Assembly: GCF_003334815.1 (NCBI RefSeq) | Contig: NZ_QOWO01000001.1 | Length of the DNA: 64,000 bases | Source: Escherichia coli | GTDB taxonomy: Bacteria; Pseudomonadota; Gammaproteobacteria; Enterobacterales; Enterobacteriaceae | Reading direction: 5' to 3' (one strand) | Part shown: positions 29,269-37,838 of the stretch, in pieces | How positions within the stretch are numbered: the stretch's first letter is position 1 | Layout: each line of letters starts with the position of its first letter | Made by a program: the position numbers and the translations under genes | The notes under the pieces: generated by a model | The model's database searches: none | What the model was told of the DNA's origin: nothing | The model's input: the letters and a program-made list of their open reading frames with translations, nothing else

Positions 29269-30699
<1,431 letters not shown>

Positions 30700-30714
30700 G
30701 CGAGGTAACAATGA

Positions 30715-30739
30715 ATTCGCCAGACTGTGTCTGGCGAAT
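30715..30739. repeat. 25-bp palindrome attcgccagac-tgt-gtctggcgaat; member of the CAGAC-N-GTCTG palindrome family
   Basis: Read directly; perfect 11-bp arms around a 3-nt centre, 16 bp after the gltD stop. Confidence 0.7.
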
Positions 30740-31258
30740 CAAATTACTGACGAAGTGCGCGTTGTTTTCTGGCAAATGCGGCATGAGCGTTTGACCTTTC
30801 CTATAATAGGGATAATTTTCAATAAATTGTGCTTTGTTCACCAAGTCTGATGAGTGAAGCACATCAAGCAATTTCTCATTTACAATCCGTCTCAATTACT
30901 TGTTAACACCTCTGACAATACCGATTCTGCAAGCTATTCAGTCTTTTCATTCCATGTAAATTGTCTCGATATTAATATACAAAATATGAATATAAAAAAC
31001 CAATATATTATCCTTAATTATCTATATATTTTCCTATTTTTCAGCGCAAACATTCATGTAATGAATAATTGTCACCACAAACCACCTCACCAGCACCTTA
31101 TTATTCACATGATCGTAACTATAAAATTCATTAAATAAATACATCCCAGCAAGTTGGCTATTTCTGAACGAGTTATTTATTTACATTCACAAACAGATAT
31201 ATATACTGCTTCAGCTTTTTATTTTAAAAAATAAATTTGTTATTAAGGATATGTTCAT

Positions 31259-32023
31259 ATGTTTTTCAAAAAGAACCTCACAACAGCTGCTATTTGTGCA
31301 GCACTTTCTGTTGCAGCATTCAGTGCCATGGCAACAGATTCAACTGATACAGAATTAACTATCATCGGCGAGTATACCCCTGGTGCATGTACCCCAGTTG
31401 TTACGGGCGGCGGCATTGTTGACTATGGGAAACATCATAACAGTGCGCTGAATCCGACCGGTAAAAGTAATAAACTGGTTCAACTGGGCCGCAAAAACAG
31501 CACATTAAATATAACCTGCACAGCACCAACGCTAATTGCTGTAACCTCCAAGGATAACCGTCAGTCGACCATTGTAGCGTTAAACGACACATCCTATATT
31601 GAAAAAGCTTATGATACTCTCGTAGATATGAAGGGAACGAAAAACGCCTTTGGTTTAGGTTCTGCGCCTAATGGACAAAAAATTGGCGCTGCATCCATTG
31701 GTATTGACAGGTCTAATGGTGGGATTCACGCGGCGGACGATACAGGTGAAATTCCTGTCGACCTGATTCAAACTGACCACTGGTCAGCAGCGACCCCCAC
31801 ATGGAAAGCCTCATCTAATGGCGCATTCTGCTCGCTGACAAGTTGCTCAGCAATCGAGCGCGGTTATTCTGTTGCAAAAACAGGGGAACTGACACCTGTT
31901 GCCATTACAGCGGTCACCTTCCCGTTACTGATTGATGCTGCGGTAAATGACAATACTATTCTTGGTTCTGATGAAACGATCAAACTGGATGGTAACGTCA
32001 CTATCAGCGTTCAGTATTTATAA
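31259..32023 (+). CDS. gltF: Fimbrial-subunit-like secreted protein GltF
   Basis: 254-aa ORF with a signal peptide; paralogous to YhcF (shared C-terminal LDGxxxISVxYL). Confidence 0.9.
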   Translation: MFFKKNLTTAAICAALSVAAFSAMATDSTDTELTIIGEYTPGACTPVVTGGGIVDYGKHHNSALNPTGKSNKLVQLGRKNSTLNITCTAPTLIAVTSKDNRQSTIVALNDTSYIEKAYDTLVDMKGTKNAFGLGSAPNGQKIGAASIGIDRSNGGIHAADDTGEIPVDLIQTDHWSAATPTWKASSNGAFCSLTSCSAIERGYSVAKTGELTPVAITAVTFPLLIDAAVNDNTILGSDETIKLDGNVTISVQYL

Positions 32024-32194
32024 GAACTTGTAATACAGTTTTTATTTTTACGCATTAACCAGTTAGCTATAACTCGGACAGATTATGCCCTATGACATGG
32101 TCTGTCTTAATCAATCTCATCGCAAACAGTGCATAACATATATTAACAATATGTTTCTGCGTTATTTATCATTATTACAGGAGTTTTAATTTAA

Positions 32195-32869
32195 ATGCTC
32201 AGACACATTACATTCACTGTATTTATAACAACATCAATGAATACCTTAGCCACAGGGATGGTTCCTGAAACATCAGTATTGCTGGTTGATGAAAAGCGTG
32301 GTGAAGCTAGTATTAATATTAAGAATACAGATGATCATCCTTCATTGCTTTACACCACCATTGTTGATTTGCCTGAAAGCAATAAATCAATTCGTTTAAT
32401 CCCGACTCAGCCCGTTATTCGTGTTGAAGCCGGTCAAGTACAACAGGTTCGATTTTTACTTCAGGCGACTGTTCCTCTGCAATCAGAAGAGCTGAAACGC
32501 GTAACGTTCGAAGGTATTCCACCAAAAGATGACAAGAGCAGCAGAGTTACTGTTTCAATTCGTCAGGATCTACCTGTACTGATCCACCCGGCTTCCCTGC
32601 CGGAAGAGCGAGAGACCTGGAAATTCCTGGAATGGCGTAAAAATGGCGACCAAATTGAGATTAGCAACCCCAGTAATTATGTCGTTCGTATGACCTTACA
32701 ATTTAAAACGCTCCCTTCAGGAAAAACGGGGGCTATAAATAAGACCTATTTTCTACCACACACCAGTACAACTACTGCATTAACAAACGCTACGGATACA
32801 AAAGTCGAGTTTTACCCAGCCAGCCGATATGGTTATCGCGGTAATAAATATGTCACTGACTTAAAATAA
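32195..32869 (+). CDS. yhcA: Periplasmic fimbrial chaperone (PapD-like)
   Basis: 224-aa ORF with signal peptide and chaperone fold motifs. Confidence 0.9.
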   Translation: MLRHITFTVFITTSMNTLATGMVPETSVLLVDEKRGEASINIKNTDDHPSLLYTTIVDLPESNKSIRLIPTQPVIRVEAGQVQQVRFLLQATVPLQSEELKRVTFEGIPPKDDKSSRVTVSIRQDLPVLIHPASLPEERETWKFLEWRKNGDQIEISNPSNYVVRMTLQFKTLPSGKTGAINKTYFLPHTSTTTALTNATDTKVEFYPASRYGYRGNKYVTDLK

Positions 32870-32889
32870 CTTTGCCTGGAGCGACAAGG

Positions 32890-35271
32890 ATGTTAAAAAA
32901 AACGTTACTGGCCTACACCATTGGTTTTGCCTTTTCTCCCCCAGCCAATGCAGATGGTATAGAGATTGCCGCTGTTGATTTTGATCGGGAAACATTAAAA
33001 TCACTAGGTGTAGATCCTAATATATCGCATTATTTTTCCCGTTCAGCCCGTTTTTTGCCAGGTGAATATTCACTGATAGTATCAGTAAATGGCGAAAAAA
33101 AAGGCAACATTGCTACGCGCTTTGATGAAAATGGCGACATTTGTCTTGATCAGGCATTTCTGCAACAAGCCGGTTTAAAAATTCCTTCTGAAGAAAAAAA
33201 TGGCTGTTACGACTATATATTGTCCTACCCGGGTACCACAATCACACCATTACCTAACCAGGAAGCGTTAGATATTATCGTTTCACCACAGGCGATCATT
33301 CCCATAGGGTTGGATCTCACAAACGCAGCAACTGGTGGAACAGCTGCGCTGCTAAACTACTCTCTGATGAGCAGCCGTGCAGAATTTTCTAATGGGAGTT
33401 CGGACTACTCCCAGGCTGCACTTGAAGGTGGGATTAATATTAATGACTGGATGTTACGCAGCCATCAGTTCCTTACACAAACAAATGGCACATTCAGTAA
33501 CCAGAACTCGTCAACCTACCTTCAACGTACCTTTACAGATCTTAAAACACTCATGCGAGCAGGTGAAGTTAACCTCAATAATAGCGTGTTGGAAGGAGCC
33601 AGTATTTACGGTATCGAAATCGCACCGGACAACGCATTGCAAACCAGCGGCAGTGGTGTGCAAGTTACTGGTATAGCCAACACCTCTCAGGCTCGTGTCG
33701 AGATTCGTCAACAAGGAGTTTTAATTCATTCCATTCTGGTTCCTGCGGGCGCATTCACTATCCCTGATGTACCTGTTCGCAATGGTAATAGTGATCTTAA
33801 TGTCACCGTTGTCGAAACAGACGGTAGTTCGCACAACTATATTGTTCCCTCCACCCTGTTTAATCAGCATGTAGAAAGCTTCCAGGGTTATCGCTTCGCG
33901 ATAGGGCGGGTAGACGATGACTATGACGAATCACCTTGGGTAATTAGTGCATCGAGCGGATGGAATCTGACACGCTGGAGTGCAATGAACGGCGGCGTTA
34001 TCGTAGCAGAAAATTATCAGGCGGCATCAATCCGGTCGAGTCTGGTTCCCCTGCCCGATTTAACAGTGAGCAGCCAAATTAGTACATCGCAGGATACGAA
34101 AGACTCACTGCAAGGACAGAAATATCGTCTTGACGCGAACTACAATCTCCCATTTTCACTTGGGCTAACAACCAGCCTCACTCGATCTGATCGCCATTAT
34201 CGCGAACTGTCTGAAGCGATTGATGATGATTATACCGATCCGACTAAAAGCACTTATGCGCTTGGTTTAAACTGGTCTAACTCCATTCTGGGTGGTTTCA
34301 ACATCAGTGGCTATAAAACATATAGTTACGACGGTGACAATGACTCAAGCAACCTTAATATTAACTGGAACAAAGCGTTCAAACACGCCACGGTTTCCGT
34401 CAACTGGCAGCATCAACTTAGTGCTTCAGAAAATAATGAAGACGATGGTGATCTGTTCTACGTCAACATCAGTATTCCATTTGGCAGATCAAACACCGCC
34501 ACACTGTATACTCGCCATGACGATCATAAAACCCACTATGGTACTGGTGTCATGGGAGTCGTCTCAGATGAGATGTCCTACTATGTGAATGCTGAACGAG
34601 ATCACGACGAACGTGAAACGAGCTTGAACGGCAGTATCAGTTCCAATCTCCATTACACCCAAGTCAGCCTTGCCGCAGGAGCAAGCGGCAGTGATAGCCG
34701 TACTTACAACGGTACGATGTCAGGTGGTATTGCCGTACATGATCAGGGAGTGACCTTTTCACCGTGGACTATCAATGACACTTTCGCCATCGCAAAAATG
34801 GATAACAATATTGCAGGTGTCAGAATTACATCTCAGGCAGGCCCAGTATGGACAGATTTTCGGGGTAATGCCGTCATTCCATCAATCCAGCCGTGGCGAA
34901 CATCAGGAGTTGAGATCGATACCGCCAGCTTGCCAAAAAATGTCGATATCGGTAACGGCACAAAAATGATCAAACAAGGCCGTGGTGCAGTAGGGAAAGT
35001 CGGATTCAGTGCGATAACACAACGCCGTGCATTACTCAATATCACACTTTCCGACGGCAAAAAACTGCCCAGAGGCGTTGCGATTGAAGATAGTGAAGGC
35101 AACTATCTGACAACATCAGTGGATGACGGTGTTGTATTCCTCAATAACATCAAACCGGACATGGTGCTAGATATAAAAGATGAGCAGCAATCATGCCGTA
35201 TTCACCTTACATTCCCAGAAGATGCACCAAAAGATGTGTTCTATGAGACAGCAACAGGAGAGTGCCAATGA
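32890..35271 (+). CDS. yhcD: Outer-membrane fimbrial usher
   Basis: Trimmed to MLKKTLLAYTIG... (793 aa); ATG confirmed at 32890. Confidence 0.9.
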   Translation: MLKKTLLAYTIGFAFSPPANADGIEIAAVDFDRETLKSLGVDPNISHYFSRSARFLPGEYSLIVSVNGEKKGNIATRFDENGDICLDQAFLQQAGLKIPSEEKNGCYDYILSYPGTTITPLPNQEALDIIVSPQAIIPIGLDLTNAATGGTAALLNYSLMSSRAEFSNGSSDYSQAALEGGININDWMLRSHQFLTQTNGTFSNQNSSTYLQRTFTDLKTLMRAGEVNLNNSVLEGASIYGIEIAPDNALQTSGSGVQVTGIANTSQARVEIRQQGVLIHSILVPAGAFTIPDVPVRNGNSDLNVTVVETDGSSHNYIVPSTLFNQHVESFQGYRFAIGRVDDDYDESPWVISASSGWNLTRWSAMNGGVIVAENYQAASIRSSLVPLPDLTVSSQISTSQDTKDSLQGQKYRLDANYNLPFSLGLTTSLTRSDRHYRELSEAIDDDYTDPTKSTYALGLNWSNSILGGFNISGYKTYSYDGDNDSSNLNINWNKAFKHATVSVNWQHQLSASENNEDDGDLFYVNISIPFGRSNTATLYTRHDDHKTHYGTGVMGVVSDEMSYYVNAERDHDERETSLNGSISSNLHYTQVSLAAGASGSDSRTYNGTMSGGIAVHDQGVTFSPWTINDTFAIAKMDNNIAGVRITSQAGPVWTDFRGNAVIPSIQPWRTSGVEIDTASLPKNVDIGNGTKMIKQGRGAVGKVGFSAITQRRALLNITLSDGKKLPRGVAIEDSEGNYLTTSVDDGVVFLNNIKPDMVLDIKDEQQSCRIHLTFPEDAPKDVFYETATGECQ

Positions 35272-35813
35272 AACGGATAATAACAGGATGCCTGCTGCTG
35301 AACTTCGCCATGGCCGCTCAGGCAGAGTGTAATATCTCCAGTAGCATACAAAATATCGACTATGGCAAACGAAGTGCTGCCATGCGCCAAGTTGACCGGG
35401 GTAAAACAACACAATTAGCAGACAGAACAATCACGCTGGTAATGCAATGCGATCAGGACGCTCATATTCGTGTTCAGTTGAATACCGCTAATATTTCCAA
35501 CAACGGATTTGGATTTGGCCCGAATGGTTCATTAAATCTGATCGCCAGCGATGCATTTTCAGGTAGTAACAATCTCGACCTGGCGTTAGCCAGTGGCAAA
35601 AATGACAATCCGGGCAGCACAGGAACAGCATCAATTAGTACTTCCCCCAATAATTGGCTGGTGTTTATGCAAAATGGTCAAGAAGTGGTAATTGATAGCG
35701 GTAAAAGCGTTAGCCTCACACTGACAATGGCTCCAGCTTTTAAGGATGAAGGGGAACTAACCGACATGACAGATATTACAGGCAATCTGACGGTCCTGGT
35801 GGAGGCAAAATGA
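35262..35813 (+). CDS. yhcE: Fimbrial-cluster secreted protein YhcE (intact, 183 aa)
   Basis: Uninterrupted ORF with a signal peptide overlapping the yhcD stop; I recall this gene as IS5-disrupted in K-12 MG1655. Confidence 0.7.
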   Translation: MPMKRIITGCLLLNFAMAAQAECNISSSIQNIDYGKRSAAMRQVDRGKTTQLADRTITLVMQCDQDAHIRVQLNTANISNNGFGFGPNGSLNLIASDAFSGSNNLDLALASGKNDNPGSTGTASISTSPNNWLVFMQNGQEVVIDSGKSVSLTLTMAPAFKDEGELTDMTDITGNLTVLVEAK

Positions 35814-36526
35814 ACAATGTAAAATTACTGATTGCCGGAAGTGCCTTTTTTGCCATGTCAGCGCAAGCCGCTGATAGAGTATCAATTGACGTTAAGGTGA
35901 CTCTGGAAGCTGCAGCTTGTACTCCAATACTAAGCAACGGCGGAGTTGTTAACTTCGGTAGTCATTCAGTCAATAGACTTTCAACGCAGCACTACACACA
36001 GATTGGAACACGTAATATTAATATGACTATAACTTGCGAATCCGCTACCGGCATTGCGATTACCGCTCGTGATACACGAATGGATAGTATGACCACCGGA
36101 AAAGATAGTGGGGGTCAGAGTGGTGTAAAATATACCTTAAATGGCGGAGGTTATATTAGCCAGACAACGCGCTTATTCGGCTTAGGGAAAACAAAAGATA
36201 ATAAAAATATCGGTAGTTATGCCGTGTTAATTGATAGCAACAACATTAGTGCCAGCAATGGTAGCCAGACGTTAGCTGTATCAATAGCAGGTGCAGATGC
36301 CGTCATAACAGGGCAAAAAAGAGCATGGCAAACGCTCACCGCTTATCCGCTTGCAGTCGATCAAAGCTATTATTACACCTTTGTAAAACCAGGTGAAACA
36401 ACCCCAACTCCTGTAACGAACGCCATTATACCGCTTCAGGTGAGCGCATCTATCGCGAATGATTTAGGCGGTTCAGAAAAAATCGAACTTGATGGGAAAG
36501 CTGTGATAAGCGTAGTCTACTTGTGA
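35810..36526 (+). CDS. yhcF: Fimbrial-subunit-like secreted protein YhcF
   Basis: 238-aa ORF with a signal peptide; paralog of GltF. Confidence 0.88.
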   Translation: MNNVKLLIAGSAFFAMSAQAADRVSIDVKVTLEAAACTPILSNGGVVNFGSHSVNRLSTQHYTQIGTRNINMTITCESATGIAITARDTRMDSMTTGKDSGGQSGVKYTLNGGGYISQTTRLFGLGKTKDNKNIGSYAVLIDSNNISASNGSQTLAVSIAGADAVITGQKRAWQTLTAYPLAVDQSYYYTFVKPGETTPTPVTNAIIPLQVSASIANDLGGSEKIELDGKAVISVVYL

Positions 36527-36710
36527 TAACAATGCCGGACAGGAGTACTATCAGGCATTCGTTTTATACGATCGGTTAATGTTTCAGGAAAGCTCTTCGC
36601 ATATCTTGGGGAAAGTAAATGTAATACGCTGTTCTTAATTGTTCAGTGCTCACCCCCCAGAGTATAGCTCATTCCATTATTCAACTTAGCTCCATATAAA
36701 GGGACAGATA

Positions 36711-37838
36711 ATGGAATCGCTCTCAGAAGGAACCACAGCAGGCTACCAGCAAATCCACGACGGTATTATTCATCTGGTCGATAGCGCCCGGACGGAAACG
36801 GTACGTAGCGTTAACGCGTTAATGACCGCGACGTACCAGGAAATTGGCCGACGAATTGTCGAATTTGAACAAGGTGGCGAGGCCAGGGCTGCGTATGGTG
36901 CGCAGCTAATCAAGCGACTATCAAAGGATTTATGTCTAAGGTATAAGCGTGGGTTCTCTGCAAAAAACTTACGCCAAATGAGGCTTTTTTACCTCTTTTT
37001 TCAACATGTTGAAATTCGCCAGACAATGTCTGGCGAATTAACACCATTGGGAATTCCGCAGACACCGTCTGCAGAATTCCCATCGGCAAAGATTTGGCAG
37101 ACGCTGTCTGCCAAATCTTTCCCCTTGCCCAGGTCCACCTACGTCCGTTTACTTTCCGTTAAAAACGCTGACGCCCGCAGCTTTTATGAAAAAGAGACGC
37201 TCCGCTGTGGCTGGTCTGTTCGCCAGCTAGAGCGGCAAATTGCGACCCAGTTTTATGAGCGGACACTACTGTCACATGACAAATCAGCCATGCTGCAACA
37301 ACACGCTCCTGCCGAGACGCATATTCTTCCGCAACAGGCGATACGCGATCCCTTTGTGCTCGAATTTCTGGAATTGAAAGATGAATATTCAGAATCCGAT
37401 TTTGAGGAGGCGCTGATCAACCACCTGATGGATTTCATGCTGGAACTTGGGGATGATTTTGCCTTTGTTGGTCGGCAGCGAAGGTTACGCATTGATGACA
37501 ACTGGTTTCGTGTCGATCTGCTGTTTTTCCACCGCCGTTTACGCTGCCTGCTAATCGTCGATCTAAAAGTGGGCAAATTCAGCTATAGCGATGCCGGACA
37601 GATGAATATGTATCTCAACTACGCCAAAGAGCACTGGACGCTACCGGATGAAAATCCGCCCATCGGTCTGGTTCTCTGTGCAGAGAAAGGAGCCGGAGAA
37701 GCGCATTATGCTCTGGCAGGTTTGCCTAACACCGTTCTGGCAAGCGAATATAAGATGCAACTACCTGATGAGAAACGACTCGCAGATGAACTCGTTCGAA
37801 CACAGGCGGTGCTAGAGGAAGGCTATAGACGCCGTTAA
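36711..37838 (+). CDS. yhcG: YhcG-family (DUF1016) protein, PD-(D/E)xK nuclease-like C-terminal domain; function unknown
   Basis: 375-aa ORF; the C-terminal segment (...FAFVGRQRRLRIDDNWFRVDLLFFHRRLRCLLIVDLK...) fits a PD-(D/E)xK-type core by recall. Confidence 0.85.
   Translation: MESLSEGTTAGYQQIHDGIIHLVDSARTETVRSVNALMTATYQEIGRRIVEFEQGGEARAAYGAQLIKRLSKDLCLRYKRGFSAKNLRQMRLFYLFFQHVEIRQTMSGELTPLGIPQTPSAEFPSAKIWQTLSAKSFPLPRSTYVRLLSVKNADARSFYEKETLRCGWSVRQLERQIATQFYERTLLSHDKSAMLQQHAPAETHILPQQAIRDPFVLEFLELKDEYSESDFEEALINHLMDFMLELGDDFAFVGRQRRLRIDDNWFRVDLLFFHRRLRCLLIVDLKVGKFSYSDAGQMNMYLNYAKEHWTLPDENPPIGLVLCAEKGAGEAHYALAGLPNTVLASEYKMQLPDEKRLADELVRTQAVLEEGYRRR
37013..37119. repeat. Three tandem palindromes (37013-37039 perfect 27 bp; 37050-37080, 31 bp with 1 mismatch; 37089-37119 perfect 31 bp) inside the yhcG coding sequence
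   Basis: aattcgccagaca-a-tgtctggcgaatt; ggaattccgcagac-acc-gtctgcagaattcc; aagatttggcagac-gct-gtctgccaaatctt, all read directly. Confidence 0.75.

Follow-up and report, generated by a model that had tools for sequence, protein, structure and literature searches.

The gltF-yhcA-yhcD-yhcE-yhcF cluster of Escherichia coli is classed among the beta chaperone-usher systems (PMC5216030, PMC3032704), and intact yhc loci have been described in phylogroup A ETEC by Del Canto et al. 2017 (PMC5216030). These loci contain the same five genes free of the IS, with a 717-bp form of yhcF, while in certain strains yhcD is cut short by an early stop codon or yhcF occurs in reduced forms; the same study predicts no function for YhcE and reports no beta-class fibre or structure and no Yhc fibre, and its deletion of yhc in an ETEC strain left adherence to Caco-2 cells unchanged (PMC5216030). 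In Salmonella, StjB has been named a beta-fimbrial usher (PMC9238391). The existence of the operon, its placement in the beta class, the K-12 IS5 lesion and the intact phylogroup A copies have all been published before, and our own sequence searches of the PDB found no beta-class structure and no meaningful match to GltF, YhcF or YhcE.

We have examined this cluster in a 64,000-nucleotide stretch of E. coli DNA (hereafter the window), in which five uninterrupted open reading frames, preceded by Shine-Dalgarno sites, occupy 31259-36526, all on the plus strand (Table 1) and at the positions given in the first-pass annotation. There is no substantive difference from the phylogroup A ETEC loci, including the form of yhcF, and RefSeq genomes in which exactly these five genes are annotated are 100% identical to the window over 30700-36700. 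Two genes most likely start inside their longest reading frames. RefSeq begins yhcD at ATG 32890, and residue 7 of the longer frame is where the match to the NCBIfam usher profile begins; for yhcE, both RefSeq and the Shine-Dalgarno spacing point to ATG 35268, which has an AGGAG 9 nt upstream, whereas the GTG at 35262 is only 2 nt from the same AGGAG. The gene is intact, as had been claimed, but most likely codes for 181 residues rather than the 183 codons first given, and a 10-nt overlap ascribed to yhcD and yhcE, which needs the unlikely GTG start, becomes a 4-nt ATGA; the 4-nt overlap reported between yhcE and yhcF is indeed present, also as ATGA.

Table 1. Features of the yhc locus, in window coordinates.
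Feature	Coordinates	Strand	Description
gltD-gltF spacer	30700..31258	+	presumed fimbrial regulatory region; 559 bp, GC 0.32 (window 0.51)
GC-rich hairpin	30712..30741, core stem 30716-30738	+	just 3' of the gltD stop; RNA fold
sigma-70-like promoter candidate	31180..31207	+	TTTACA-16 nt-TATACT, ~50 nt 5' of gltF
gltF	31259-32023	+	254 aa; DUF1120 fimbrial subunit, signal peptide, N-terminal extension, Cys44-Cys87 pair
12-bp stem-loop	32076..32107	+	in the gltF-yhcA spacer; RNA fold
yhcA	32195-32869	+	224 aa; beta-class periplasmic fimbrial chaperone
yhcD	32890-35271 (ORF 32872-35271)	+	793 aa; outer-membrane usher
yhcE	35268-35813 (ORF 35262-35813)	+	181 aa; intact, secreted, remote DUF1120 relative
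empty IS5 target site TTAG	35635-35638	+	occupied in K-12
yhcF	35810-36526	+	238 aa; second DUF1120 subunit, N-terminal extension ADRVSIDVKVTLEAAAC

The same locus is present in K-12 MG1655, with 99.9% DNA identity to the window and identical accessions for GltF, YhcA, YhcD and YhcF. The difference lies in yhcE: base-by-base comparison with a K-12-type genome shows a 1195-bp IS5 with a 4-bp TTAG duplication at about codon 124, whereas in the window the site is empty and the K-12 yhcE::IS5 allele is absent. The first-pass annotation, which describes yhcE as IS5-disrupted in K-12 MG1655, is thus correct on this point. Among 5426 complete E. coli genomes the cluster is present in about 1148, every copy being at least 99% identical, and a distant blastn search of E. 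coli brought up no diverged alleles; a contiguous yhcE is present in 783 genomes and the K-12 IS5 junction in 344, all of them K-12-type. Intact yhcE is thus the ordinary form and the K-12 allele the exception, so that the finding of an intact copy is correct yet not new; the conclusion drawn earlier, that the window represents a different E. coli background, understates how common the intact form is.

The same genomes raise the question of whether the cluster is a decaying relic, intact in sequence here but making no fibre any more and heading for loss. Most E. coli lineages have lost the locus: ~79% of the complete genomes are without the cluster, two of the three locus layouts do not include it, insertions of IS5, IS1, IS2 and ISEc33 at the locus are independent and frequent, and IS1-associated deletions have removed the cluster altogether; a Pantoea symbiont retains a degraded copy, and the missing adherence phenotype and damaged yhcD and yhcF genes noted above point the same way. 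We nonetheless consider this explanation improbable, in view of the number of genomes in which yhcE is contiguous and of the condition of the genes in related species. In E. coli, E. ruysiae and E. albertii the five reading frames are intact and the ATGA coupling is conserved, and comparison of the orthologues at this locus gives dN/dS values of 0.05-0.22 in each of the five genes, although dS is close to saturation, showing that they are under purifying selection. Further afield, a search that started from a 13-sequence DUF1120 alignment recovered eight related loci, all in Enterobacteriaceae, and seven of these eight, from other genera, keep the order DUF1120 (one or two copies), chaperone, usher, YhcE-like protein, DUF1120.

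Synonymous divergence between the Escherichia orthologues greatly exceeds that of the genes on either side, and the locus looks like an old trans-species polymorphism of mosaic make-up, in which gltF-yhcA-yhcD and yhcE-yhcF would form modules with separate histories. Such a pattern is to be expected of a surface structure that faces diversifying pressure, rather than of a dead relic. We regard it as likely that the region is the intact, ancestral E. coli form of a beta-class chaperone-usher operon.

Profile searches support the proposal that the chaperone-usher cluster is complete. YhcD scores 1273 bits against NCBIfam PRK15304 (cut-off 723) and contains the Pfam domains PapC_N, Usher (E = 1.1e-150) and PapC_C, while YhcA scores 319.7 bits against PRK09918 (cut-off 183) and matches PapD_N with E = 1.1e-23; an usher of the YhcD clade combined with DUF1120 subunits is what characterizes the beta class in the scheme of Nuccio and Baumler. 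Type 1 and P pili (Fim, Pap) have the same set of usher domains and the same PapD_N domain in the chaperone. However, YhcA is without the Arg8 and Lys112 of PapD (reference sequence checked against 1pdk_A), the pair with which PapD/FimC-type chaperones anchor the subunit C-terminal carboxylate; the aligned residues are Val28 and a proline, and Caf1M Lys139 aligns to that same proline. The replacement is common to YhcA of E. coli, E. ruysiae, E. albertii and seven other genera. We do not claim it as novel, since beta chaperones have been described as having no classical anchors, and as carrying instead residues analogous to the Arg89/Tyr196/Arg174 anchor of CsuC (PMC4654587). In this they resemble the archaic and alternative systems (CsuC, EcpB and CfaA chaperones), although usher phylogeny groups Yhc with the classical ones. 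In the YhcA family Arg102 (in KRVTFEG), Arg165 and Arg211-Tyr212 are invariant.

The first-pass annotation took GltF and YhcF to be clear paralogues, and they align over their full length with 30% identity (E = 6e-26), sharing ..ACTP.. near the N-terminus and LDGxxxISVxYL at the end. YhcF matches Pfam DUF1120 with E = 2.3e-47, and the consensus of this family, LxVxGxIxPxACTP...LDGxATxxLxYL, in which Cys44, Cys87 and the penultimate Tyr253 never vary and Gly37 hardly does, has the N-terminal extension, the disulfide and the C-terminal motif that are classic for pilins. At the N-terminus there is an alternating hydrophobic pattern, ELTIIGEY in GltF and VSIDVKVTL in YhcF, in a segment that is unstructured in the monomer model. 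The pilin-like fold for which structure prediction had been recommended is found in the predicted model of GltF, which superposes on FimI, FimA, PapE and PapA, and the subunits have the incomplete Ig-like fold of pilins. The extension, the Cys pair and the penultimate Tyr are also found in type 1 and P pili; in contrast, the Yhc subunits exceed those of the classical pili by ~70 residues and are members of DUF1120 instead of the Fimbrial Pfam family, and no two-domain adhesin is encoded in the cluster. A comparison with the PRK15301-PRK15304 models, which we infer to correspond to Salmonella Stj, places the usher above its subfamily cut-off, but GltF and YhcF match PRK15302/15303, and YhcE matches PRK15301, with 55-107 bits against equivalog cut-offs of 226-337, so that these are distant relatives and not orthologues.

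By hhalign, the YhcE family aligns with DUF1120 over the full length (probability 97%, E = 1.3e-10), Cys pair and DYG motif included, with a gap opposite the N-terminal segment of DUF1120. Cleavage of E. coli YhcE is predicted at AQA|EC, which would place the mature N-terminus a single residue ahead of the first Cys, as is also predicted for seven other genera, and the YhcE-like proteins at the related loci always begin xC directly after the signal peptide. The predicted cleavage sites and the profile alignment suggest that YhcE has no N-terminal donor strand, which makes it a candidate for the tip or first-incorporated subunit. It could be argued that YhcE is instead an accessory factor of the periplasm or outer membrane, which might regulate assembly or serve as an anchor and would have a beta-sandwich fold but no place in the fibre. 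This seems unlikely to us, because the profile match extends over the whole length, cysteines and DYG included, and the Foldseek neighbours in AFDB50 (E 1e-12 to 1e-8) belong to DUF1120 or are fimbrial proteins, some of them named as such. The genes for minor and tip subunits usually stand after that of the usher, and yhcE lies 3' of the usher gene and is translationally coupled on both sides. We tentatively propose, with somewhat less than even confidence, that YhcE is the missing beta-class tip, an acceptor-only derivative of DUF1120 that would reach the usher first and be linked by YhcF to a rod of GltF, at a locus that is an old mosaic trans-species polymorphism of Escherichia.

The name gltF implies a quite different role, that of a periplasmic regulator of glutamate synthase or nitrogen metabolism, co-transcribed as gltBDF and next to fimbrial genes by accident. 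The gene does lie 3' of gltD on the same strand, a gltBDF operon is still cited in recent papers (PMC8403718), and read-through from gltD into gltF is possible, as the hairpin beyond gltD has no clear U-run. However, gltD is present in 5416 of the 5426 genomes and gltF in about 1148, so that gltF does not follow gltBD in occurrence. Nor is it contiguous with gltBD, the two being separated by the AT-rich spacer and a strong hairpin. GltF also has a predicted pilin fold and a paralogue in YhcF, and belongs to a family that always adjoins a chaperone and an usher. Deletion of gltF was reportedly without any nitrogen phenotype in the hands of Goss, Perez-Matos and Bender in 2001, which counts against the regulator. 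The doubt cast earlier on the regulatory label is thus well placed; we find the regulator reading hardly credible, and in all probability gltF is no functional part of the glutamate synthase operon.

The spacer between gltD and gltF, previously described as ~560 bp long and strongly AT-rich, has very nearly that length and a GC content far below that of the window (Table 1), and AT-rich upstream regions (GC 0.29-0.37) are found at orthologous or related loci, in three Escherichia species and at seven other enterobacterial loci. The hairpin at its left end has a predicted stability of -22.6 kcal/mol (z = -4.35), equalled by none of 200 shuffled sequences, and is also found 3' of gltD in a genome where gltD is directly faced by a convergent nanQ. 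The gltBD unit probably ends at this hairpin, a presumed terminator that has no clear U-run. The promoter candidate matches the consensus at 10 of 12 positions, and its TTTACA block is kept in E. ruysiae. Since promoter consensus matches in the region (10, against 14.5 expected from shuffles) show no excess, and terminator consensus matches are at or below the shuffled expectation, we treat individual sites as candidates; an Rfam scan of 30600-36800 with E up to 1 gave no match. The gltF-yhcA spacer is 171 bp long with a GC content of 0.30, and the fold of 32020-32110, which includes its stem-loop, has -21.9 kcal/mol (z = -3.4); by analogy with other fimbrial operons, this stem-loop may set the ratio of the major subunit to the assembly genes.

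We also note that the 8-bp sequence TAACAATG is present 3' of both the gltD and the yhcF stops. These repeats were considered as endpoints of the deletions and rejected: the genome with the convergent nanQ, which has neither the cluster nor yhcG, still has the hairpin that follows the left copy, although recombination between the repeats would have deleted that hairpin.

Taken as an intact operon, the cluster suggests the following assembly, in which the order of subunits, the silencing and the formation of a fibre itself are inferred. All five products would be exported by Sec signal peptides, and YhcA, a PapD-like chaperone, would cap the subunits in the periplasm with a non-classical carboxylate anchor as in beta, archaic and alternative systems. 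The usher YhcD would then polymerize them through donor-strand exchange, with GltF as the presumed major repeating subunit, being encoded by the first gene, with its own AT-rich promoter region and a stem-loop after it, and with YhcF as a second polymerizing subunit. YhcE, with an acceptor fold and apparently no donor strand of its own, could occupy only the distal end of the fibre, as tip, initiator or adhesin candidate. Under laboratory culture conditions the operon is probably not expressed, owing to H-NS-type silencing through its AT-rich upstream region.

As a discovery the intact cluster carries little weight, and its practical value is limited. Nonetheless, the gltF name and the label of a gltBDF operon are still spreading and are misleading, and it is strains with intact yhcE, such as that of the window, and not K-12, that are the right background for establishing whether beta-class fimbriae are made at all. 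An acceptor-only YhcE would, moreover, provide a concrete model for the architecture of the beta-class fibre.

Downstream of gltD lie five uninterrupted plus-strand open reading frames, gltF, yhcA, yhcD, yhcE and yhcF, and positions 30700-36700 match at 100% identity RefSeq E. coli chromosomes on which exactly these genes are annotated (yhcE as 'YhcE family protein'), so the complete and intact fimbrial cluster proposed in the first-pass annotation is upheld. The 183 codons given there for yhcE and its 10-nt overlap with yhcD do not hold, as both depend on the GTG at 35262. An AGGAG motif is positioned 9 nt 5' of the ATG at 35268 and just 2 nt from the GTG, and because both this spacing and the RefSeq choice favor the ATG, we assign yhcE 181 residues and a 4-nt overlap (ATGA) between the yhcD stop and the yhcE start. 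The reported AT-richness of the gltD-gltF spacer is clear, with a GC fraction of 0.32 over 559 bp versus 0.51 in the window; gltD is at 0.56 and the five cluster genes at 0.42-0.46.

Features of the gltD-yhcG region (window coordinates)
Feature	Coordinates	Strand	Remarks
gltD	29281-30699		precedes the cluster
TAACAATG, first copy	30706-30713		just past gltD stop
gltF	31259-32023	+	uninterrupted
FCSLTSC	31829-31846		GltF residues 191-196
gltF-yhcA spacer	32024-32194		171 bp, GC 0.30
Promoter-like match	32143-32172		10/12 positions; within gltF-yhcA spacer
yhcA	32195-32869	+	uninterrupted
yhcD	ORF from 32872; ATG 32890	+	793 aa; uninterrupted
yhcE	ORF from 35262; ATG 35268	+	181 aa; uninterrupted
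IS5 insertion point of K-12	35635-35638		unoccupied; near yhcE codon 124
yhcF	35810-36526	+	uninterrupted
TAACAATG, second copy	36527-36534		directly after yhcF stop
yhcG	36711-37838		next gene after yhcF

The contrast with K-12 drawn in the first pass is borne out by comparison with a K-12-type genome (L001), in whose annotation an IS5 transposase separates two pseudogene pieces of yhcE. Base by base, the two differ by a 1195 bp IS5 running from GGAAGGTGCGAATAAG to CACCTTCC, with one copy of a duplicated TTAG on each flank, at a site that is empty in the window. Sequence of yhcE is present in 1142 of 5426 complete E. coli genomes; it is near-complete in one place in 783 (at least one of which has IS1 joined in), and the K-12 IS5 junction is found in 344. 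Intact yhcE is therefore the normal form, and the disrupted gene is particular to the K-12 lineage.

The cluster as a whole occurs in approximately 1148 of the 5426 genomes, every copy being at least 99% identical, and a sensitive blastn search of the same set found no diverged alleles; gltD is present in 5416. Comparison of window 30700-37838 with three genomes that have no cluster (L006, L007 and L008) reveals three layouts of the gltD-nanQ interval: gltD, cluster, yhcG and nanQ, as in the window; gltD, yhcG and nanQ, as in O157:H7 and O111:H8; and gltD followed by nanQ, as in strain R7. Homology of O157 with the window ends 2 nt past the gltD stop and restarts about 130 nt upstream of yhcG. 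We note that yhcG, whose product has a PDDEXK nuclease domain, also varies in its presence, and that the O111:H8 copy has a frameshift. In several E. coli genomes (L003, L004 and L005) the counterpart of 30741-37200 consists of gltD, IS1 and a 5'-truncated yhcG. Their left junction falls 42, 166 or 304 nt past the gltD stop and their right junction is shared; because the left ends vary and the right end is constant, it appears that deletions next to IS1 have repeatedly taken out the entire cluster. The TAACAATG 8-mer was considered as a deletion junction, and its duplication is probably due to chance since it does not match the junction in L007, in which nanQ converges directly on gltD.

A strong hairpin (z = -4.35) follows the gltD stop and is also present in L007. 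A sigma-70 match at 10 of 12 consensus positions is located about 50 nt before gltF, and the gltF-yhcA spacer contains a strong 12-bp stem-loop as well as a second promoter-like match. Recurrent IS5 insertion in this spacer has been seen in an evolution experiment (PMC8403718), and genomic SELEX of minor sigma factors placed a peak in yhcA, in the heat-shock section of the table (PMC5493296). AT-rich upstream regions (GC 0.29-0.37) are conserved in all ten related loci, and silencing of the fimbrial operon by H-NS would be plausible.

YhcA and YhcD match the PRK09918 chaperone and PRK15304 usher subfamilies above curated cut-offs, with PapD_N and PapC_N/Usher/PapC_C domains, respectively. GltF and YhcF are both DUF1120 proteins, and their suspected paralogy is supported by a full-length alignment (30% identity, E = 6e-26). 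The family is large (781 representatives with an E-value limit of 1e-3), with matches covering the whole protein, and has the consensus LxVxGxIxPxACTP...LDGxATxxLxYL with invariant Cys44, Cys87 and penultimate Tyr253. GltF and its closest relatives have an extra cysteine pair, FCSLTSC, that is missing from YhcF and most DUF1120 proteins and may form an additional loop disulfide in GltF. The doubt previously cast on GltF as a regulator of glutamate synthase is well founded: gltF is missing from approximately 79% of gltBD-carrying genomes, the protein has a pilin fold, and in the related loci examined the family always adjoins a chaperone and usher, all of which argues strongly against such a role. 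Goss et al. reportedly came to the same conclusion in 2001 from genetic evidence.

Alignment of YhcA and all orthologues examined (with FimC also aligned and the PapD sequence checked against 1pdk_A) places Val28 at PapD Arg8 and a proline at PapD Lys112. Pakharukova et al. (2015, PMC4654587) had already stated that chaperones of beta-fimbriae are devoid of the classical anchor residues and possess counterparts of the CsuC anchor, and the Arg102 (KRVTFEG), Arg165 and Arg211-Tyr212 invariant in the YhcA family are consistent with that statement.

The first-pass finding is thus correct and ordinary, as the cluster, its class, the IS5 lesion and intact loci have all been described: one comparison of laboratory strains gives it as a beta-class chaperone-usher operon that carries IS5::yhcE in K-12 and that three of the other strains, including W, lack (PMC3032704), it is routinely counted as one of 12 chaperone-usher operons of MG1655 (PMC8174762), and intact loci were described in phylogroup-A ETEC in 2017 (PMC5216030). 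The present analysis adds only the correction of the yhcE start, the interpretation of YhcE as a DUF1120 relative that lacks a donor strand, the conservation of the five-gene architecture, and the pattern of selection and mosaicism across Escherichia.

The function of YhcE has been termed unclear (PMC5216030), and a Pfam search with it returned no recognized family (DUF1120, E = 0.11). Profile-profile comparison of ten YhcE-family proteins with DUF1120 gives a full-length match (97% probability, E = 1.3e-10) with the signal peptides, both cysteines and a DYG motif in register, and the lone large N-terminal gap corresponds exactly to the donor-strand-like DUF1120 segment of about 15 residues. 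Foldseek matches in AFDB50 (E = 1e-12 to 1e-8) are almost all named fimbrial protein, DUF1120 or beta-fimbriae major subunit. Seven loci, one each from Pseudenterobacter, Klebsiella oxytoca and Silvania and two each from Enterobacter and Leclercia, keep the same order: one or two DUF1120 genes, then chaperone, usher, a YhcE-like gene and a further DUF1120 gene. In all seven the YhcE-like protein starts one residue before the first cysteine, right after the signal peptide, and the flanking DUF1120 proteins retain a 14-20-residue extension. We infer that YhcE would be an acceptor-only subunit, which would place it at the distal tip. Pseudenterobacter timonensis, Enterobacter hormaechei and E. 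asburiae have two tandem copies of the GltF-like first gene ahead of the chaperone, and in a Pantoea stink-bug symbiont a related cluster is degraded, with chaperone and usher fragmented, consistent with genome reduction. A 2025 interactome preprint (bioRxiv 10.1101/2025.05.07.652715) labels yhcE 'UPF0056 membrane protein', probably a name mix-up since this does not fit a secreted beta-sandwich protein.

The frequency of IS insertions and losses, together with the unchanged Caco-2 adherence of an ETEC yhc deletion (PMC5216030), could indicate that the cluster is a relic rather than functional fimbriae; against this, E. ruysiae and E. albertii have the same five genes intact between gltD and nanQ, where the 4-nt overlaps are also kept, and Nei-Gojobori dN/dS for the five genes is 0.05-0.22. 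Their dS, from 0.6 to saturation, is far above that of flanking gltD and nanQ (0.28-0.52, with dN/dS 0.02-0.09) between Escherichia species (window 31259-36526 against L010 and L012). E. coli is nearer E. albertii in gltF, yhcA and yhcD (78-83% amino-acid identity) and nearer E. ruysiae in yhcE and yhcF (78-86%), a mosaic pattern whose breakpoint appears to fall between yhcD and yhcE. Together these comparisons point to purifying selection on the cluster genes, with alleles that would either predate the species or have crossed between them. Old or imported alleles under purifying selection are the pattern usual for surface structures.
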